Below are positions 9,387 to 63,212 of a stretch of 64,000 nt of DNA, piece by piece (position 1 is the stretch's first letter; each line of letters starts with the position of its first letter). The stretch comes from Arcanobacterium buesumense (GTDB lineage Bacteria > Actinomycetota > Actinomycetes > Actinomycetales > Actinomycetaceae). The notes beneath the pieces were generated by a model. It saw nothing but the letters and a program-made list of their open reading frames with translations. It did no database searches and was not told where the DNA came from. A program made the position numbers and the translations under genes. The stretch spans positions 1,843,285-1,907,284 of the forward strand of contig NZ_CP050804.1 of the NCBI RefSeq assembly GCF_012563545.1, given 5' to 3'.

Positions 9387-10880
9387 CTACTTCTTTTGAT
9401 ACAACGACTTACGCTGGAAAACTGGCTCCGTGGTCACATAAACACCGAGATTACGGAAAATAGTTTCATCAACCGAACCCAAAATGGTTGTCACATGCAC
9501 ATCACAATGCGCCAAATTCTTCAACTGAGCCATCGCATTACGCGCATCTTGACTCGTGGATGCCGACACGCTCAAAGCAATCAATACCTCATCCATGTGC
9601 AATCTAGGATTACGCGAACCTAAATGCTCCGTCTTCAACTTTTGAATCGGCTCGATAGCCTGCGGGGACAACAACAATGCATCGCGGTCAATACCCGCCA
9701 AATGCTTCAATGCATTAAGTAACATTCCCGCCGAACAACCCAATAATTCCGTCGTCTTGCCCGTGACGATTGTGCCGTCCAGAAGCTCAATAGCCGACGC
9801 CGGACCACCAGTTGCCTGCGCCCGTTTCAGTGCCGGAGCAACCACTTTACGATCCGCCGTCGTCACCCCTGCCTTACGCATAATATGGCGAACTCGATCC
9901 GATAATGTTGAATCCAACGCTTCCTTACGCTCTTCAACACGAGCCTGATAATACCGACGAATAATCTCCTGGCGCGATGCCTCCCGCACAGCTTCATCAT
10001 CACTAATACAGTAGCCAGCCATATTCACTCCCATATCAGTTGGGCTCTTATATGGCGACTCACCGGCAATCCGCTGCAACAACGTGTGCAACAACGGGAA
10101 AACATCAATATCGCGGTTATACGAAGAAACCGACTCGCCGTAAGCCTCCAAATGGAAAGGATCAATCAAATTCGCATCATCCAAATCCACAGTAGCGGCC
10201 TCATATGCCAAATTCACCGGATGCTCAAGCGGAATATTCCAAATCGGGAACGTCTCAAACTTGGCATAACCAGCCTTCACTCCACGTTTTGCCTCATGAT
10301 AAATCTGCGACAAACAGGTAGCCAACTTGCCTGAACCTGGCCCAGGCGCAGTGACAACCACTAAATCACGCGATGTTGACACAAAGTCATTCTTACCCAA
10401 GCCCTCATCGGACGCAATCACGTCAACATTAGTCGGATAACCTGGAATGATCCGATGGCGTGCCACCCGCACCCCCATCCGCTCCAAACGCTGCATAAAC
10501 GTCACCGCGAGCGCATTCGACTCCTCAAACTGGGTCATCACCACATTCTCAACCAAGAAACCACGTTCCCGGAACACGTCAATAAGCCGCAACACGTCTT
10601 CGTCGTAGGTAATACCCACATCCGAACGCATCTTCTGACGCTGTAAATCCTTGGCATTCAAACACACAATAATTTCAACATCGTCAGCAATCTGCTCCAG
10701 CATGACAATTTTGTTATCCGGGGTAAAGCCCGGCAACACCCGCGACGCGTGATTATCATCGAAAAGCTTACCGCCCATCTCTAAATACAGCTTGCCGCCG
10801 ATCTTCGCGCGGCGCTCCACAATATGCTTGGACTGCAACTCAATGTACTTCTCACGGTCAAACCCCACTTGGAAGCCCAT
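9387..10880 (-). CDS. UPF0371/DUF1846-family protein (conserved, function unknown)
   Basis: N-terminus [16 protein letters not shown]...[23 protein letters not shown] matches the conserved start of this roughly 500-aa family as recalled. Confidence 0.5.
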
Positions 10881-11146
10881 GCTCTACTCCTTACCATTCG
10901 GTGGGCAATAGTCCCTGCCTATTTCAGCGATCTCACCCCGTGCCTGTAACACGGTGCAAACTCGCCAGAATAAGGAAAAGCTCCCTAGCGAAATCTACGA
11001 GAATAAACTCGAACGACTTCTAGGGAGCCCAACAACGGAGCTTACGCGCCGATGCCTTTCCTCGTCAAACGCTCACTGATTTTTACCCAAACACAGGCGG
11101 GTGAGAACTGTGAGAGACCGTCGTCATCACTCGTAACCTATTCCGA

Positions 11147-31168: not shown

Positions 31169-32465
31169 GTGCTAGCTGCACTCCACCTTCTTGTTTCTCG
31201 CCTACGAATCGCTGGCCCTGATGAGGCTCTTGTTATTTCCGGTGCTGGGGAATCTGGGGCGATGAAAATTGTTCCTCCGGGTGGCAAAGTTTTTGTTGTG
31301 CCGATTTTGCAGAGCACTTCTAAGATTTCGTTGGAAGCCTACAAGATTCCGTTGTGATTGACTGCCTTGACCGGTCCACAATTCCACTCGATATTGAAGC
31401 AGTGGCAATGGTCAAGATTGGTCGTCGAACTCATCGATTCGGGCTGCATCAGAACGTTTCAATGGCCGTCAAGAAACACTGCCAGACTCCGTCGTCGAAG
31501 TTCTTTCCGGAACTCTACGTTCGGTCGCTGGCCGATTGTCTGTATCGGAACTTATTTCTGATCGTGAAACGTTCTCCAGCCAGGTCGCGCAAGGCGCCGA
31601 AGAAGATCTCGCACGTATGGGCATCCCTGTTGATACGCTACAAATCAAAGATATCTCGGATAAAAACGACTACATCATGGCGTTAAGTGCCCCAGAAGCA
31701 CAACGAGTCTCACGTATTGCGCGCGTAGCAACGGCAGAAAATGAGACGCAGGCAAACGAAGCTGAAGCTGAATCAAAGCGTAAGATCGCTGAACAGAACA
31801 AGGATCTGGAAGTCTACCAGGCCGAAATGAAGCGCATGACGATGGAAGCCCGGGCGATTGCGGATGCGGCTGAGCCGATCGAACGCGCGAAGCAAGAAAA
31901 GCTGATTACGTTGCGCGAGCAGGAAGTCGCCGAGCAAAAGGCTGTTTTGAAGGAACGCGAACTGGAAGCCAGCGTTCGCAAACCGGCTGATGCGGAACGT
32001 TACCGCGTTGAGGTTCAAACTGAGGCTCGCAAGGTTGAGGCCGTGTTGAAGGCAGAAGCCGATGCGGAAGCAATCAAGAAGACCGGTAATGCTCAAGCAG
32101 AAGCAAGCAAGGCTCTTGGTTTGGCGCAGGCAGAAGCAGACAAGGCTCAAGGTTTGGCACGTGCTGAGGCCGACAAGGCTCAAGGTTTGGCAGAAGCAAC
32201 TGCGATGGACGCCAAGGCGTACGAATGCATCGATAAGATGACCGTCATTTCAACCGATGGCACAACCGCCCTCACCCGTGGAGTGACCAACAACGTCAGC
32301 CAGCTCAACGAAGTTATCAACGATCTGTTAGGCATCAACTTGGGAACGCTCACCAGCGGAATCTTGCAATCCACCAAGCTATTCCAAACAGAAGATCATC
32401 AGGCCGAGACAGAGGGCCATGATGCTGAGCTATCCGCCCCGAAAACCGGGCTGGATGAGGAGTAA
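31169..32465 (+). pseudogene. Flotillin-like SPFH (band-7) protein gene disrupted by at least two internal frameshifts plus a probable one at the 5' end
   Basis: Pieces in three frames: LAALHLLVSRLRIAGPDEALVISG..KISLEAYKIPL (frame 2), VIDCLDRSTIPLDIEAVAMVKIG (frame 1), ASERFNGRQETLPDSVVEVLSGTLRSVAGRLSVSELISDRETF... and a long Ala/Glu/Lys coiled coil (frame 0). Together they reconstitute a flotillin (FloT/YuaG-like) layout. Confidence 0.6.
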
Positions 32466-32499
32466 CTTTCTGTTTCTGCTAGACCATCTGGAGAAAAGG

Positions 32500-32528
32500 A
32501 TTGACAGTTGACATACGCCAAAATATGA
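32500..32528 (+). promoter_or_regulatory. Sigma-70-like promoter for the putative tracrRNA. -35 TTGACA (32500-32505), 17-bp spacer, -10 TATGAT (32523-32528).
   Basis: Consensus hexamers with canonical spacing, read directly from the sequence. Confidence 0.4.
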
Positions 32529-32534
32529 TGGGTG

Positions 32535-32640
32535 TGTAACTGATTTCTCAGTAAGCTCTACCATGTTTGTAGAGTTGAATGCTCCACCGGTTTCCGGTTT
32601 TATATTCGGGCTGTGTTTTTCAACACGGCCCGAATATTTT
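32535..32640 (+). ncRNA. tracrRNA: Putative tracrRNA of the type II-C system: 5' anti-repeat, nexus-like hairpin, two further hairpins, intrinsic terminator ending in TTTTT
   Basis: GUGUAACUGAUUUCUCAGU is complementary (one bulge, a few G:U pairs) to the 5' half of the repeat as transcribed from the minus strand (GCUGGGAGUCAGUUACAUAAC). Hairpins ctctac..gtagag and ccgg..ccgg, terminator attcgggc..gcccgaat + ATATTTTT, directly upstream of cas9. Confidence 0.55.
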
Positions 32641-32655
32641 TGCCATAATAGTGTC

Positions 32656-35600
32656 ATGTCTGATGTTATTAATTTTCGTGTAGGTATTGATGTTGGCACT
32701 AATTCAGTGGGTTTAGCCGCTATAGAAATTGGGCCAGATAATTTGCCGTCGAAAATCCTTAATTCTGTAGTTTTTACGCATGATGGTGGCGTGGATCCAC
32801 AAAATCGCAAAACAGCAGCGACTCGGTTAGCTGTCTCGGGAGTGGCCCGTCGAACACGTAGACTCATTCGACGGAGAAAACAACGTCTCCGTGCTCTTGA
32901 TGTTTTCCTACAATCCCATGGATATCCTTGCCCAAACCTTGAAGAGTTCGACGATCCTCACTTTCCGTGGCATGCTCGCGCTCAACTGGTTTCTGAGCCT
33001 GTTGCACAAGAAGAACTACCTGAACTTTTTTCCGTTGCGATACGGCATATAGCCCGCCATCGGGGATGGCGTAATCCTTATTCACGAGTAGAATCACTGC
33101 ATCTGCCAACACCGCCTTCAGAGGAATTGAATAACCTCAAAAATAGACTGATTGAAGAAACCGGAGTCGTACTAGATGAAGATGCGACACCTGCAGAAAT
33201 AATCACTGAAGTTATCTCAGATATGCGAAAGATACGTGGTCCTGAAGGAATCCTCGGTGGAAAACTTCGCCAGTCAGATAACGCAAATGAGATTCGTAAA
33301 ATTGGCGAAGTTCAAGGATTGGATTCCTCTTTTATTAATGACGTTATTGATCATGTGTTCGCTGCCGAATCTCCTAAAGGAAGTTCCGCAAAACGTGCCG
33401 GGAAGGATGAACTTCCAGGCCAGCACGACAAGTTCCGTGCCGAAAAGGCGCATCCTGCATTCCAGGAGTTCCGAATTGTTTCAGTAGTAGCAAATCTACG
33501 TATCAAAGATCTTGAGACAGGAAGTATCCGTAAGCTTACCCGCGATGAGATGGATACAGTTGTTACATATTTAATGAATGCTTCTGCTGAAGATTCTGTT
33601 ACATGGGATGACGTTGCTACCAAATTAGAGATTTCTAGAGATTGTTTATCTGGAACAGCTTCACCTGGCCCAGATGGTGATCGCCCTTATTTGATCCCAC
33701 CAACTAACACAACAAATCAACGCATACTTGAGTCTAAGCTAAAACCGCTTATTGCTTTTTGGAAGAATGCAGATCTAGATACTCGGTCTACACTGATTAA
33801 CGAGATGTCGAATTCATCAGAGATTACCGATGATTCCCCAGGAGCAGAAGAAGTTCATGACTTCTTGACTTCTTTAGCAGACACAGAATTAGAAAAACTA
33901 TCAACAATTAGTCTTCCCGCCGGAAGAGCGGCTTATTCGGTAGATTCACTTCAACGCTTGTCTCGGCGGATGCTTAACGATGGCGTTGATCTTTTCACCG
34001 CACGCAAATTAGAGTTTGATGTGCCTGATGATTGGCGCCCATCAGCTGCCCCTATAGGCGATCCAGTTGGCAATCCTGGAGTTGATAGAGTTCTTAAAAT
34101 TGTTAACCGCTGGTTAATGAATGTTACCGACAAATGGGGAGTTCCAGCCACAGTAAATATCGAGCATATTCGCGGTGGATTTGGTTCCGAAGCTATGGCT
34201 CGTGAATATGAACGTGAAGTTGGACAGCGCTTCAAGCGCAATCAAATGATTATCGCCAAAATACAAAAAGATAATGACATTAGTGGACCTGTCCGTTCCG
34301 CAGATATTACCCGCTACTTGGCCGTTAAGCGCCAAAATGGGGCATGCGCGTATTGTGGTACAACTATTTCTCTGGGAACTTGCGAAATGGATCATATTGT
34401 TCCACGAAAGGGACAAGGCTCTACAAATAGTCGATCCAATTTATTGGCTACCTGCCGTTCTTGTAACCATAGCAAGGGAAATAGGTTGTTTAACTTATGG
34501 GCTAAAGAACAGAACAACCCTAATATCTCATTTGAAAAAGCAAAGGATAGAATCACGTTCTGGATTAAGGATGACGGCTTATCACCAAAACAATGGAACC
34601 AGTTTAAGCGTGATATCATTATGCGACTTGGTCGAGTTACCGAAGATGACGAACTTGATTCACGCTCTATCGAATCAGTTGCTTGGATGGCGAGAGAGCT
34701 TCGCCATCGTATTGAGTCTCATTATTTGTCTACAGGTTCCGATACAAAAGTTAACGTTTTTAAGGGAATGATAACGTCAGAAGCTCGCAAGGCTTCTGGC
34801 TTTGAAATGCAAGTAGAGATGATAGGCGATCGTGGAAAAACACGATTGGATCGACGTCATCATGCTATGGATGCTTGCACTATCGCACTAATGTCTCCTT
34901 ATGTTGCACAGGTGTTGGCTGAGCGCATTAATTTACGAGAGTACCAGCAACTTACTCGTGAACGATTCACCTGGAAAGAGTACCGAGGAAAGGATGAAAC
35001 TCATCGTATTTCCTATGGTAAGTGGCTTAACTCTATGAATCGTCTGTTAGTTCTGTTCAACGAGGCACTGCGCTCTGATTCGATTCCAATTATGGAAGAT
35101 CTTCGTTTACGTCTTGGAAATGGTACTGCTCATGATGCCACTATCCATAAGTTTGGCAAGAAACGCCTTGGTGACGCATGGTCATTCGAAGATATCGACA
35201 AGGCTTCAACCCCACAAATGTGGCTAGCATTAACTCGTTGTTCTGATTTTGACCAAAAGGATGGTCTTCCAGAAAATCCTGAGCGAACTATACGAGTCAA
35301 AGATGTCTACTATACTGCTGATGATGAACTGGAGTTGTTCCGAACTAAGGCAGCACTACTTTCGGTACGCGGAGGTTATGCAGAAATTGGTAATACTATT
35401 CACCATGCTCGCATTTACCGTATCAACGGAAAGAAGATCTCCTATGCGATGGTACGAGTTTTCGCAGTAGATCTTCATAAACACCGCCATGAGGATTTAT
35501 TTAATGTTGTCCTTCCTCCGGAATCTATTTCAATAAGAACTGCTGCGCCAAAAATTAAGCAGGCATTGGCTGATGGAACTGCTGAGTATCTTGGTTGGGT

Positions 35601-35940
35601 TGTTGCTGGGGATGAAATTGAAATCATTCCGTCAGATCCTAAGGCCTTCGCCAAAGGCGCTATAGGTGAATTATTTGAGGATTTCCCTGGGTTGACACGT
35701 TTTAAGCTAGTTGGATTCGACTCTCCTTCAAAACTACGTTTGCGACCAGTCAAGCTTTCTAGCGAAGGCCTCAATGACAACTTTACTTCAGGTAGCCACG
35801 ACATTATTGCTAAAGCTGGGTGGCGTCCAGAAATCAATGTCGTATTTAGCAAAGCTCAAGTACGCGTCATCCGAAGAACTACTTTAGGAAACATTCGGAA
35901 TACCAGTAGTTCACATCTTCCATCATCATGGCAGGTCTAA
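32656..35940 (+). CDS. cas9: Type II-C CRISPR-associated endonuclease Cas9 (compact, about 1094 aa)
   Basis: RuvC-I GIDVGTNSVGLA, RuvC-II NIEHIRGG, HNH DHIVPRKGQGSTNSRSNLLATCRSCNHSKGN, RuvC-III HHAMDACTIAL. Followed by cas1-cas2. Start placed at MSDVINF. The longer ORF from 32563 would overlap the tracrRNA. Confidence 0.95.
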   Translation: MSDVINFRVGIDVGTNSVGLAAIEIGPDNLPSKILNSVVFTHDGGVDPQNRKTAATRLAVSGVARRTRRLIRRRKQRLRALDVFLQSHGYPCPNLEEFDDPHFPWHARAQLVSEPVAQEELPELFSVAIRHIARHRGWRNPYSRVESLHLPTPPSEELNNLKNRLIEETGVVLDEDATPAEIITEVISDMRKIRGPEGILGGKLRQSDNANEIRKIGEVQGLDSSFINDVIDHVFAAESPKGSSAKRAGKDELPGQHDKFRAEKAHPAFQEFRIVSVVANLRIKDLETGSIRKLTRDEMDTVVTYLMNASAEDSVTWDDVATKLEISRDCLSGTASPGPDGDRPYLIPPTNTTNQRILESKLKPLIAFWKNADLDTRSTLINEMSNSSEITDDSPGAEEVHDFLTSLADTELEKLSTISLPAGRAAYSVDSLQRLSRRMLNDGVDLFTARKLEFDVPDDWRPSAAPIGDPVGNPGVDRVLKIVNRWLMNVTDKWGVPATVNIEHIRGGFGSEAMAREYEREVGQRFKRNQMIIAKIQKDNDISGPVRSADITRYLAVKRQNGACAYCGTTISLGTCEMDHIVPRKGQGSTNSRSNLLATCRSCNHSKGNRLFNLWAKEQNNPNISFEKAKDRITFWIKDDGLSPKQWNQFKRDIIMRLGRVTEDDELDSRSIESVAWMARELRHRIESHYLSTGSDTKVNVFKGMITSEARKASGFEMQVEMIGDRGKTRLDRRHHAMDACTIALMSPYVAQVLAERINLREYQQLTRERFTWKEYRGKDETHRISYGKWLNSMNRLLVLFNEALRSDSIPIMEDLRLRLGNGTAHDATIHKFGKKRLGDAWSFEDIDKASTPQMWLALTRCSDFDQKDGLPENPERTIRVKDVYYTADDELELFRTKAALLSVRGGYAEIGNTIHHARIYRINGKKISYAMVRVFAVDLHKHRHEDLFNVVLPPESISIRTAAPKIKQALADGTAEYLGWVVAGDEIEIIPSDPKAFAKGAIGELFEDFPGLTRFKLVGFDSPSKLRLRPVKLSSEGLNDNFTSGSHDIIAKAGWRPEINVVFSKAQVRVIRRTTLGNIRNTSSSHLPSSWQV

Positions 35941-36863
35941 CTACTGAAAGATGGAGGTCCTTGGACTTTAGTCAGTTCAGGGGCTCTATCTCAGCTGTTC
36001 GTGGAGCGTTGTCGGTTAAAAATGATGAATTAGATCTGACTGTCCCAACAGCTGATGTTAGTGTCGTTCTTATTGGCGTTGGCACAAAACTATCTGCCGG
36101 AGCTATGCACCGTCTCTTAGAAGATGATGTTGCAGTTATTTTTTGTGATTGGAAGGGCGTTCCCTATGGTGGTTCTTTTGGATGGAGCGATCATAGCCGA
36201 GTAGGTGCTCGCCATCGTGCCCAAGCTTCTCTCTCGGAGCCAAAAAGAAAATCGACCTGGGCTCGTATCGTAAAGGCAAAAATTTTAGGTCAAGCGGCCG
36301 TGCTTGACTACTGTTCACGTCCCGGGGGCTCCTTACTGCGTAACCTATCAAAAAATGTACGATCTGGTGATACTTCTAATGTTGAAGGTCAAGCGGCAAG
36401 ATCTTATTGGCAATATTTGTGGGGTGATGAAGGATTTAAACGGCAGCCGGGAATACGGGATCAAGTTCTTCCAAGTAACTCAATGCTTGACTACGGTTAT
36501 ACAATTCTTAGAGGTCACGCGATACGGGCGGTTTTTAGCGCAGGTTTATCGCCAACTATTGGGTTGTTTCATCATGGGCGTTCCAATTATTTTGCACTTG
36601 CAGATGACATTATTGAGCCATTTCGCCCTGCGATAGATGCGTGTATCGCATCAGAGTTTTCCGGTGAATCAATTGAAAGTCCTGACATTCGCAGAGCTAT
36701 CGTTGAGGTTGCACATTCCACTTTCGGACAGACTGGGAATTCCATTCCAACTGAAATGACAGCTCTTGCTCAACGTTTAGGACAATTAATCGAAGGGGAT
36801 CCACAGAAGCTATTGGTTAATGTGTGGTCGCCTATTATGACCTTAGGCATCACAGATGAGTAG
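35928..36863 (+). CDS. cas1: CRISPR-associated endonuclease Cas1 (type II)
   Basis: Conserved Cas1 blocks (..LDYGYTILRG.., acidic C-terminal region). Start overlaps the cas9 stop. Confidence 0.9.
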   Translation: MAGLTTERWRSLDFSQFRGSISAVRGALSVKNDELDLTVPTADVSVVLIGVGTKLSAGAMHRLLEDDVAVIFCDWKGVPYGGSFGWSDHSRVGARHRAQASLSEPKRKSTWARIVKAKILGQAAVLDYCSRPGGSLLRNLSKNVRSGDTSNVEGQAARSYWQYLWGDEGFKRQPGIRDQVLPSNSMLDYGYTILRGHAIRAVFSAGLSPTIGLFHHGRSNYFALADDIIEPFRPAIDACIASEFSGESIESPDIRRAIVEVAHSTFGQTGNSIPTEMTALAQRLGQLIEGDPQKLLVNVWSPIMTLGITDE

Positions 36864-37176
36864 TGATCCCATGTGGTGTCTTGTAATGTTTGACTTACCA
36901 ACGAAAACAGCTTCACAAAAACGTGAGTATTCGTCATTTCGAAATTATTTGTTAGATATTGGTTTTTCTCGTGTGCAATATAGTGTTTACGTACACTACT
37001 CCCCCACAGGGCTTATTGGTACTCGTCTAGTCAAGGGAATCAAAGCTAATCTTCCGCCTGGTGGCGAGGTTAGGATTGTTCACATCAGCGATAGACAATG
37101 GTCCAAAGCATTTCGTTTTGCTAATGCAATTGAAGAAAAACCAGAAGAAGCTCCCCAGCAATTAATGATTTTTTAG
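36856..37176 (+). CDS. cas2: CRISPR-associated endoribonuclease Cas2
   Basis: About 100 aa. N-terminal LVMFDLP pattern typical of Cas2. Overlaps the cas1 stop. Confidence 0.85.
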   Translation: MSSDPMWCLVMFDLPTKTASQKREYSSFRNYLLDIGFSRVQYSVYVHYSPTGLIGTRLVKGIKANLPPGGEVRIVHISDRQWSKAFRFANAIEEKPEEAPQQLMIF

Positions 37177-37226
37177 TGTTTGGGGCACCATTTTTTGTTG
37201 AAATAGTGCCCCAAACACTAACTCCT

Positions 37227-38030
37227 TAAGTCTATCAAGGAGTTATGTAACTGACTCCCAGCCCTCGATTTTAGCTGCTCTGGCATCGTCTAAGTCTATC
37301 AAGGAGTTATGTAACTGACTCCCAGCCCTGAACAGCTCCATGCGAATACTCGATTAAGTCTATCAAGGAGTTATGTAACTGACTCCCAGCACGCCACCCT
37401 GGCTTACTGAACGTGCCGTAAGTCTATCAAGGAGTTATGTAACTGACTCCCAGCGCTGCGGCGCGAACCAGAAGCAGAAGCTTAAGTCTATCAAGGAGTT
37501 ATGTAACTGACTCCCAGCCTGGCCTTGCACTTGTTGCATTTCGATCTAAGTCTATCAAGGAGTTATGTAACTGACTCCCAGCCGCGGTATCTGGGAAATC
37601 CCGGACGTTGTAAGTCTATCAAGGAGTTATGTAACTGACTCCCAGCCTAACGATAACAGGATCGGCAAAGCCCATAAGTCTATCAAGGAGTTATGTAACT
37701 GACTCCCAGCCACTCTTTCAGGCATCGCACAAAAGTTCTAAGTCTATCAAGGAGTTATGTAACTGACTCCCAGCTAGAAGAAGCTATCGAACAGATTGGC
37801 GCTAAGTCTATCAAGGAGTTATGTAACTGACTCCCAGCGGCGAAAATAGTTAGGTTTACAGCGTCTTAAGTCTATCAAGGAGTTATGTAACTGACTCCCA
37901 GCCTATTCTAGGGGTTCCACGCGTGATACTTAAGTCTATCAAGGAGTTATGTAACTGACTCCCAGCAACCGCAACAAATCAACGAAAAGGCGCGTAAGCC
38001 CCTTAAGGAATTACGCAGCCAGATCCCAAC
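37227..38030. CRISPR. CRISPR array: 12 identical 36-nt repeats (taagtctatcaaggagttatgtaactgactcccagc) plus one degenerate terminal repeat (37995-38030), 12 spacers of 28 nt, period 64. It is probably transcribed on the minus strand.
   Basis: Repeat positions counted directly: 37227, 37291, 37355, 37419, 37483, 37547, 37611, 37675, 37739, 37803, 37867, 37931, and degenerate at 37995. Confidence 0.95.
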
Positions 38031-38621
38031 ACTAGCGAAGATACATTCTTGGAACGCCCCAACCAAATCGCTCCTATTTTCAAGCACAATCATCTTCTTT
38101 TCAAGCGCAATTATCTTCGCGCTTGGTGTAAATTTTATTTGGAACTCATATACGTTCCGAGCAATTGTAGCTCGGCTGACGGTATGAGTTTTCTGTTTTC
38201 TAAATTAACTCCAAGTGAACGCCCTTAACCCCAAGCAAACACCGCCTTTGGTCTTAGTTTACTTTCTCAATGTTCCCGATTCTAATACGATCATCACGCC
38301 TACCCACCCTGCCGACATAGTGGATACCGGTTTCTCAATGCGGCACTCTTCCTTTGTGCATTATTAAATGCGTTATGGATTTATATTCTCTTTCAAAGGC
38401 TTCACTACAAGGAGACAAATCGCTTCCCGCTACATTGCGGGAGCAGCTGAGTCGCATCTTGTTGATGTAGAATCGTTGCAAAATTACTCAAGGTTTGAAC
38501 AATCAATTGGTTTATTTAATGCTTGACCAGTCAGCCAGATAAAGGGGCTAAGAGCCATGTCAAATAGGTCATTTTTATGCGATGCAGAGCAACAGCCTTT
38601 GCCAGACGGTGAAAACGGCAA

Positions 38622-38807
38622 GTGTGGCAGGTGTCGTTTATTGATGACGATGGCATGCTGTTGTTTGACAATGGCGGTGTCACTTTCGATAAGAAAACAG
38701 CGTTCTCATTGTTCCGTTCTTTTCCCCATGATTTTACGCAAGAACAGATAGAAATTATTAAAAGGCAGTTGCCGCACTGGTATGACTTCTTTTCTGATCG
38801 CTTATAA
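38622..38807 (+). CDS. Hypothetical small protein (61 aa) in the AT-rich region downstream of the array
   Basis: Protein-like composition (MWQVSFIDDDGMLLFDNGGVTFDKKTAFSLFRSF...). Weak start context. It overlaps alternative ORFs on both strands. Confidence 0.2.
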   Translation: MWQVSFIDDDGMLLFDNGGVTFDKKTAFSLFRSFPHDFTQEQIEIIKRQLPHWYDFFSDRL

Positions 38808-62441: not shown

Positions 62442-63212
62442 ATGAACCACCGTAAAGTTATTATTTCTCTCATTGCGTTACTAACAGCTGCCGCATTAGT
62501 TATCGGTTTGATTGTTTCTGGGTTTTTCCTTGGTGGTGGGAAAACACCGGCGGCACACAACACTTCGGCATCGCAATCTGCGCAAGATTCACCATCAGCA
62601 CAACCGTCTAACGAAGAAAATGGTGCTGCGGAGCAAAAACTATCTCCGGAGGTTATACAAGTTATTGACAATCAACATCGGTTGATTGCTGATGATCCGC
62701 GAGCGCTGGGAAACCTCGATGCCCCGGTTATTATTGAAATGTATTCTGATTACCGTTGTGGTCATTGCCGGGATTGGACTCTTCATACTTTGCCGGAGTT
62801 ACAGTCGTTACTCGATGAGGGCAAGATCCGTATTGAATACAATTCCATGCCGGTTCTTGGGGATGATTCAGTCCTCATTGCGCAGGCTTCACATGCGGCC
62901 GCATCGCAACATAAGTTTTGGGAGTTCCATAAGGAGTTATTCGCTAACCCACCCCAGCCAACTAAGGAAGCTTTGACTGCACTAGCTGGTTCGTTGGGGA
63001 TGGATGAGGATGCGTTTGCTGCTGAGATGGTTGCCGAGCAGACGGTGAAGGATGTGACTGGCGAACGTGAGCATGGAGTTGCGCTTGGTATTACTGGGAC
63101 GCCGTCGTTCCTTATCGGTTATTCGTTTGTTCCGGGGGCGTTGCCGGCCGATAAGTTTATTGACGTTATCAATAAAGAATTAGTTCGCCCTGATCCGCAT
63201 ACTGAAAATTAA
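62442..63212 (+). CDS. DsbA-family thiol:disulfide oxidoreductase (membrane-anchored thioredoxin fold)
   Basis: N-terminal TM. CxxC active site CGHCRDW in a thioredoxin-like context. Confidence 0.75.
   Translation: MNHRKVIISLIALLTAAALVIGLIVSGFFLGGGKTPAAHNTSASQSAQDSPSAQPSNEENGAAEQKLSPEVIQVIDNQHRLIADDPRALGNLDAPVIIEMYSDYRCGHCRDWTLHTLPELQSLLDEGKIRIEYNSMPVLGDDSVLIAQASHAAASQHKFWEFHKELFANPPQPTKEALTALAGSLGMDEDAFAAEMVAEQTVKDVTGEREHGVALGITGTPSFLIGYSFVPGALPADKFIDVINKELVRPDPHTEN

Follow-up and report, generated by a model that had tools for sequence, protein, structure and literature searches.

The DNA analyzed here is a stretch of 64,000 nt from Arcanobacterium buesumense (the window), which carries a minimal type II-C CRISPR-Cas9 locus in the order cas9-cas1-cas2-array, without a fourth cas gene. 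cas9 (32656..35940, + strand) encodes a protein of 1094 aa that belongs to type II-C, Actinomycetaceae clade (TIGR01865, 207 bits), and is followed on the same strand by cas1 (35928-36863; TIGR03639 cas1_NMENI, 224 bits) and cas2 (36856-37176; TIGR01573 cas2, 60 bits). The CRISPR array (37227..37966) has 12 repeats, all identical and 36 nt long, separated by 11 spacers of 28 nt, and its functional sense is assigned to the minus strand (GCUGGGAGUCAGUUACAUAACUCCUUGAUAGACUUA). Upstream of cas9, a flotillin-like gene ends at 32465. The subject of this work is the short interval between the flotillin-like gene and cas9, in which an earlier note had placed a candidate trans-activating CRISPR RNA (tracrRNA) with a promoter and terminator of its own. 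Judging from the sequence and from its counterparts in related loci, we hold with high confidence that positions 32536-32642 represent the tracrRNA gene of the type II-C CRISPR-Cas9 system of A. buesumense.

The predicted promoter of this gene (32501..32529, +) comprises a -35 box TTGACA at 32501-32506, a 17-nt spacer and a -10 box TATGAT at 32524-32529. It matches the sigma-70 consensus at 11 of 12 positions, in agreement with the earlier note, and is the best promoter-like site in the 7.3 kb scanned (31500-38800). When the start is placed 6-8 nt after the -10 box and the 3' end in the T-run behind the terminator, the predicted primary tracrRNA spans ~107 nt (32536..32642, +). Its modules are arranged in the order 17-nt anti-repeat, AA, 7-bp stem-loop, GAAUGCUCC linker, small hairpin and terminator, and the whole RNA folds with -43.1 kcal/mol (z = -6.7 versus shuffles). 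The three hairpins that had been described beforehand, a nexus-like one, a ccgg one and a GC-rich one with a U-tract, were all recovered, at 32555-32575, 32586-32598 and 32602-32641, respectively. The AA connector (32553-32554, +) links the anti-repeat to the nexus-like stem-loop 1 (SL1; 32555..32575, +), whose 7-bp stem is formed by GCUCUAC and GUAGAGU around the loop CAUGUUU. SL1 is followed by the single-stranded linker UGAAUGCUCC (32576..32585, +), containing the nearly invariant GAAUGCUCC motif, with columns that are fixed or almost fixed in alignments A2 and A4, and then by the 5-bp hairpin ACCGG-UUU-CCGGU (32586..32598, +), the first of the 3' hairpins. The last element is an intrinsic terminator (32602..32641, +) with a 16-bp stem (32602-32617 with 32622-32637), a UUUC loop and a T-run to 32641, ending 14 nt before the cas9 ATG.

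The anti-repeat, GUAACUGAUUUCUCAGU (32536..32552, +), pairs with nt 1-16 of the minus-strand repeat (GCUGGGAGUCAGUUAC). The perfect 9-bp core, the bulge and the several G:U pairs that had been reported for this pairing were all found: TGTAACTGA complements nt 9-17 of the minus-strand repeat (GCUGGGAGUCAGUUACA...) without a mismatch, and beyond this core one bulged U is followed by eight pairs, three of them G:U, down to the first base of the repeat. If the bases before the predicted start are included, the complementary segment reads GUGUAACUGAUUUCUCAGU (32534-32552). The segment had been described as an imperfect complement of the repeat's 5' 21 nt; the complementarity is present, but only ~16 repeat nt would be paired, because the promoter puts the start of the transcript near 32536. 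An RNA duplex prediction, which the earlier note had proposed, gave -22 kcal/mol for repeat nt 1-16 with 32536-32552, both in RNAcofold and in RNAduplex.

That the assignment goes beyond a chance resemblance is due to the comparative data, not to the complementarity within the window. We assembled 82 related loci (denoted by L numbers), 80 of them cas9 loci from GTDB species genomes and two the closest relatives, obtained by exact protein look-up (L081 and L082). The CRISPR repeats of these loci are homologous, and the regions upstream of their cas9 genes share ...ACUGAUUCUCAGUAAG, a hairpin and then UUGAAUGCUCC.... A G:U-tolerant Smith-Waterman search was run over the two strands of every locus, using that locus's repeat in either orientation. 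In most loci, a match between a minus-strand crRNA (CRISPR RNA) and a plus-strand partner at -80 to -250 from cas9 was among the top matches, and in the A. buesumense locus the pairing site upstream of cas9 was the top match. For a covariation analysis, repeat nt 1-20 of each locus, GAAA and the upstream RNA were fused into an artificial single guide, and pairs of a specified structure were counted across 37 loci. The loci of this first covariation alignment had been chosen by a regular expression fixing the last 6-7 anti-repeat nt and the linker, such that only the remaining columns count as independent evidence; within it, 93.5% of the duplex and SL1 cells were paired, as compared to 75.2% in shuffles and 23-43% with the partner slid. 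Compensatory changes occurred at 16 of 22 pairs overall, and none of 500 shuffles reached the covariation score. In the repeat:anti-repeat part, 92.9% of cells were paired and 10 of 16 pairs had changed on both sides; in SL1, all six tested pairs of the 7-bp stem showed compensatory change. When SL1 was followed in 74 distinct sequences, this held for 7/7 pairs, with 93.4% of cells paired. Individual loci illustrate the coupling, as matched variants appear in both repeat and anti-repeat (ACUAAUU in L006, UACUAAAAC in L014 and AACAGUUUC in L064). An ACUGA/UCAGU self-hairpin within the anti-repeat was also considered as a conserved element and discarded, being lost in L014 and L016.

We then turned to a covariance model (R1) built on the 54-nt core. 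Its sole match in the 64-kb window was 32537-32591 (+), with 62.5 bits and E = 1.2e-12. Among the related loci, 78 of 82 gave one match, in most cases 100-300 nt upstream of cas9 and on the same strand, and ~35 of the positive loci lay outside the training set. The promoter follows the RNA as well: in 42 of 46 loci, a TANNNT -10 box with a TTGNNN-like -35 element precedes the last base of the anti-repeat by 20-24 nt. Given this fixed spacing, the primary transcript would begin 13-17 nt before the last anti-repeat base, and such a start fits the decay of the distal pairs, as pairs 1-14 are well kept, whereas positions 15 and 16 do not pair in 12 of the 37 loci. G:U pairs are themselves conserved at duplex position 1 (36/37 loci) and position 5 (30/37). 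Taken together, the single model match, the presence of the same RNA beside nearly all related cas9 genes, the covariation of the anti-repeat with the repeat and within SL1 and the constant promoter spacing support the tracrRNA identity proposed by the earlier note.

The relatives also show how the RNA varies. The closest one, L081, whose Cas9 is 84% identical, has an identical repeat and the same U bulge in its anti-repeat; in A. haemolyticum and A. hippocoleae the bulge is missing, and position 8 of the repeat carries A in place of G. In Arcanobacterium species that are less closely related, the tracrRNA hairpins persist with altered sequences. L081, L082 and L001 preserve the terminator hairpin with sequences that differ considerably, and the ACCGG hairpin is present in some relatives and merged into one long stem-loop 2 in others. 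The position of the gene is variable, too. The tracrRNA is encoded on the opposite strand from cas9 in L079, L050, L013, L043, L048, L052 and L078. In two of the Gardnerella loci, L073 (10396-10449) and L075 (10780-10833), it lies on the minus strand just beyond the array, and in A. pluranimalium (L024, 3497-3550) it is found ~1.45 kb upstream of cas9.

These positions bear on the alternative that the region acts purely in cis, as a 5' leader or attenuator of a cas9 mRNA read through from the 32501 promoter, and not as a trans-acting RNA. In A. buesumense the RNA does lie on the cas9 strand, its terminator is only 14 nt away from the ATG, and some read-through is plausible. However, relatives carry the same RNA on the other strand from cas9, after the array (L073, L075) or well upstream (L024), and the RNA therefore need not belong to the cas9 mRNA. 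A cis-acting leader is also at odds with the covariation between the tracrRNA 5' end and the repeat, and with the conserved extended -10 box that cas9 possesses itself, placed for a leaderless start. We thus regard this alternative as very improbable.

Another alternative concerns the strand from which the crRNAs are made. Since the tracrRNA has the same sense as the + strand repeat, only minus-strand transcripts can pair with it, and the crRNAs must accordingly arise from the minus strand, as the earlier note had deduced from the orientation. Loci with rearranged components agree with this assignment. In the Actinomyces loci L010 (array 9598-10979) and L015 (9535-12514), the array is inverted with respect to cas9, and there the partner of the upstream RNA is the + strand transcript. 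The tracrRNA itself resides on the other strand or after the array in L050, L052, L073, L075 and L078. In all of these inverted or relocated cases, pairing is with the GYUGRR... strand of the repeat. A search for a better anti-repeat elsewhere, which the earlier note had named as a possible refutation, gave only one stronger match, a degenerate 13th repeat (TAAGCCCCTTAAGGAATTACGCAGCCAGATCCCAAC on +; 37995..38030, functional sense minus) at the cas-distal end of the array, with 66% identity over the repeat+spacer+repeat unit. If this element, read on the minus strand, were the real anti-repeat, the tracrRNA would start downstream of the array, the crRNAs would come from the + strand, and the RNA before cas9 would be something else. 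In RNAduplex, no other site in the window pairs as strongly with the + strand repeat as this element does (-35.3 kcal/mol), and a weak terminator-like site lies on the minus strand at 38004-37985. Against this, the element sits in exact 64-nt register with the repeats and in the same sense, which identifies it as a decayed terminal repeat. The next repeat on the minus strand follows within 28 nt, leaving no room for a nexus or 3' hairpins, so that it is without a tracrRNA body. The covariance model finds no match there, and it is the RNA upstream of cas9, not the degenerate repeat, that covaries with the repeat in 37 loci. We consider it highly unlikely that the degenerate repeat is the anti-repeat.

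Besides the choice of loci for the first alignment, several observations weigh against the assignment of 32536-32642 as tracrRNA. First, the duplex with the repeat is short, with 16 bp, one bulge and three G:U pairs. Second, window-wide complementarity to the repeat is no better than chance: the site has a Smith-Waterman score of 33, and shuffled repeats reach at least 33 in 48 of 100 cases; a match inside a DsbA-like gene at ~62923 ties with it. When the comparison is restricted to the 300 nt upstream of cas9, only 2 of 1000 shuffled repeats reach this score. Third, an RNAduplex scan of the window with both repeat orientations ranks the tracrRNA site only ~7th, and the scan is undiscriminating, with chance matches in coding genes at 62920, 41059, 56296 and 58963 equaling the candidate. 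Fourth, Rfam (release 15) reports only tRNAs in the window at the gathering threshold and no family for the tracrRNA region, and at E up to 10 the region yields only spurious matches to snoRNA (small nucleolar RNA), lncRNA (long non-coding RNA) and miRNA (microRNA) families. Fifth, spacers offered no PAM-side (protospacer adjacent motif) confirmation of the crRNA strand, as 75 spacers from the A. buesumense window, L081 and L082 had no match in 50,697 phage records, and 186 spacers from six Arcanobacterium arrays, compared with the related loci, gave only intra-array duplicates. Finally, the 5' and 3' ends of the tracrRNA are predictions.

The complementarity results could be taken to mean that a chance match happens to lie beside an ordinary promoter and terminator, the true tracrRNA being outside the window or missing. 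Shuffled repeats scoring as well in about half of the trials, and the tie at ~62923, speak for such a scenario. The family-wide covariation, the single covariance-model match and the conserved position speak against chance, and we give this explanation very little credence. The tying sequence itself, a 36-nt repeat-like stretch at 62923-62958 (TTCCATAAGGAGTTATTCGCTAACCCACCCCAGC) within the DsbA/thioredoxin-like gene (62442-63212), scores as well as the true anti-repeat and was rejected as a chance match because it is coding and is not matched by the covariance model.

Weakest of all, and extremely unlikely in our view, is that the stretch is coding, with cas9 starting at ATG 32563 and encoding 1125 aa as annotated for the closest relative. 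In favor of this reading, an open frame does run from 32563 into cas9, and the annotated length of protein P0002 (84% identity) is 1125 aa, a surplus of exactly 31 residues. Against it, this ATG sits in the loop of SL1 and A. haemolyticum does not have it (CCAAGCTTG), indels with lengths not divisible by three break the frame between 32563 and cas9 in other species, substitutions track base-pairing instead of codons, and the A. buesumense protein is annotated with 1094 aa and aligned by its homologues from residue ~5. cas9 starts at ATG 32656, and the ATG 32563 chosen by the ORF finder (open reading frame) yields an unconserved in-frame extension over the RNA. In L081 (5001-8378; GCA_018913425.1, JABAPL010000014.1), cas9 is annotated with 1125 aa, 31 residues more than in A. 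buesumense. The start of this gene call falls in the SL1 loop, and the call therefore probably overruns the tracrRNA.

Two further promoter-like motifs may serve the other components of the locus. An extended -10-like motif, TGATAGACT, is present at nt 26-34 of every minus-strand repeat, and of the 44 distinct repeats in the family, 41 have TGnTAnnnT at this position, with its end at nt 34-35. By analogy, this conservation suggests Neisseria-like crRNA promoters embedded in the repeat ends; it could instead serve spacer integration by Cas1-Cas2. A further extended -10 box, TGcCATAAT (32641..32649, +), abuts the T-run of the tracrRNA terminator and ends 6 nt before the cas9 ATG. The promoter scan lists it as TCAACA-18-CATAAT with a TG before cas9, and the TGcCATAAT box is conserved in the four closest species (A. 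buesumense, L081, L082 and L001). Among 80 loci, 40 have a -10-like hexamer 5-7 nt ahead of the cas9 ATG, as compared to 5.4% of control start-like codons. No Shine-Dalgarno sequence was seen before the ATG (32641-32658). Because the extended -10 box ends so close to the start codon, we predict for cas9 a leaderless mRNA, made from a promoter that directly adjoins the terminator of the tracrRNA.

These elements can be combined into a proposed pathway. A sigma-70-type promoter would start the tracrRNA at ~32536, directly at the anti-repeat, and the strong intrinsic terminator would end it at ~32640, giving a product of ~107 nt. The 17 nt at its 5' terminus would base-pair with repeat nt 1-16 of every minus-strand crRNA from the 37227-37966 array. 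As in the solved guide complexes of the Cas9 proteins CdCas9 (Corynebacterium diphtheriae) and AceCas9 (Acidothermus cellulolyticus), Cas9 would be expected to bind the duplex, the AA connector, SL1, the GAAUGCUCC linker and the 3' hairpins, and the spacer part of the crRNA would guide it to cleave matching DNA. By analogy with N. meningitidis and C. jejuni, each repeat's extended -10 motif may drive a crRNA that starts ~5 nt into the next 28-nt spacer, resulting in a guide of ~23 nt. The short duplex may make processing by RNase III unnecessary, or the processing may be absent. More broadly, it is possible, although we put it forward only tentatively, that a tracrRNA beginning at the anti-repeat (~14-17 pairing nt) and -10 boxes in the repeats together define, throughout the clade, a guide pathway without RNase III cleavage, in which the duplex ends are set by start sites and trimming, and that the transcription of the tracrRNA and the leaderless cas9 abutting its terminator is physically coupled, by promoter occlusion or read-through.

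The Cas9 encoded in the window is 100% identical to the annotated A. buesumense Cas9 protein (1094 aa). Its closest solved structures are AnaCas9 (4OGC, Actinomyces naeslundii; E = 2e-286) and CdCas9 (6JOO; E = 1e-252), with AceCas9 (8D2K; E = 6e-145) also among the closest, and the structure matches together with the Pfam domains Cas9_a, Cas9_b_hairpin, Cas9_Topo and Cas9_C place it in the AnaCas9/CdCas9 clade. In an alignment of 19 proteins (A1), the invariant columns include D12, E503, D579/H580, N604, H735/H736 and D739, which we take to be the catalytic residues of the RuvC and HNH domains. The array has features of its own. For transcription of the minus strand, the end with the decayed 13th repeat is the upstream one. 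Should decay be a sign of the oldest end, spacers would be acquired next to cas2, at the downstream end in terms of transcription. In the Arcanobacterium arrays (window 37263-37930, L081, L082 and L001-L003), 169 of 186 spacers measure 28 nt and the rest 29 nt, and duplicated spacers occur within several arrays. With ~30 nt being the usual length of type II spacers, those of Arcanobacterium would be short. A perfect 13-bp inverted repeat, GTGTTTGGGGCAC...GTGCCCCAAACAC (37166-37208), overlaps the cas2 stop codon just before the first CRISPR repeat; it is not a canonical terminator, because neither strand has a T-run after the stem, and it may be a leader element or serve to halt read-through from the array. 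At the other end of the locus, a 33-nt tandem repeat (32097-32192; 2.9 copies, 84% matches) lies in the 3' portion of the flotillin-like gene, a short way upstream of the tracrRNA promoter.

For the annotation of this genome, the tracrRNA supplies the missing RNA component of the A. buesumense Cas9 locus, and it also revises, in all probability, the 1125-aa gene call of the closest relative, which wrongly overruns the tracrRNA. A single guide RNA (sgRNA) design is available for the compact 1094-aa Cas9, composed of repeat nt 1-16, a tetraloop and 32536-32641, and the covariance model finds the tracrRNA of the clade wherever it has been relocated. The understanding of type II systems is unchanged by the A. 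buesumense tracrRNA. Its scaffold, position and function are already established for close relatives, and the RNA is very likely a tracrRNA of the kind known from the Actinomycetota II-C Cas9 clade. Modestly new, and all of them predictions, are three regularities of the family: a short anti-repeat delimited by a promoter, repeats that carry -10 boxes, and a leaderless promoter of cas9 directly next to the terminator of the tracrRNA.

In the literature, we found no paper linking Arcanobacterium with a tracrRNA, and the preprint by Dooley et al. does not mention the genera concerned. According to the survey by Chylinski et al. (2013), no anti-repeat could be detected in C. diphtheriae, A. cellulolyticus, B. 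longum and B. dentium. The anti-repeat was plausibly missed at that time because it is short (~14-17 nt), delimited by a promoter and contains G:U pairs.

Some features have counterparts in other type II-C systems. Experiments demonstrated that the array is transcribed in the direction opposite to the cas operon in the type II-C systems of N. meningitidis and C. jejuni and, in addition, in F. novicida (PMC3737331), and -10-type promoters exist within Neisseria and Campylobacter repeats (Zhang 2013; Dugar 2013; reviewed in PMC5965381). The A. buesumense locus resembles Neisseria meningitidis and Campylobacter jejuni in both respects, the predicted opposite transcription of the array and the -10-type motif at the 3' end of the repeat. 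In contrast to these species, the repeat promoters are only predicted here, and the anti-repeat is much shorter and begins at the 5' end of the transcript. Moreover, the A. buesumense tracrRNA lies upstream of cas9, unlike that of Neisseria, which sits between cas9 and cas1.

Within the Actinomycetota, the likeness is closer. The tracrRNA predicted for the II-C system of Bifidobacterium bombi (Briner et al., 2015; PMC4521832) is likewise located upstream of the cas9 5' end and on the same strand, and Bifidobacterium loci match our covariance model; B. bombi is of a different genus, and its anti-repeat fits its own repeat variant (GCUAAUUCCCAG type). In the sgRNA of AceCas9 (6WBR/8D2K), a 12-bp repeat:anti-repeat duplex is joined by an AA connector of 2 nt to SL1, and a connecting loop of ~9 nt leads on to SL2 (PMC7733487). 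The A. buesumense RNA has the same layout of duplex, AA, SL1, connecting loop and SL2, whereas the protein is more distant and the stem sequences differ. The CdCas9 sgRNA (6JOO; Hirano et al., 2019, PMC6488586) comprises a 12-bp duplex, SL1, a linker in which G77, C78, U79 and C80/C81 are read base-specifically, and SL2. It shares with the A. buesumense scaffold the short duplex, the SL1 directly after it, the GCUCC-containing single-stranded linker and the 3' stem-loop(s), and the same RNA is carried by the Corynebacterium loci L016, L023, L035, L045 and L067. The A. buesumense RNA differs in the 1-nt U bulge of its duplex, in its linker, which is GAAUGCUCC as opposed to GAUUGCUCC in Corynebacterium L045 and L067, and in having two 3' hairpins, the small ACCGG hairpin and the terminator, where CdCas9 uses one long stem-loop 2. 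SL1 occupies the same position as the SL1 of the CdCas9 and AceCas9 sgRNAs (PMC6488586, PMC7733487), and 32536-32598 follows, element by element, the order of the Actinomycetota II-C guide scaffold: duplex, AA, SL1, GCUCC-containing linker and SL2.

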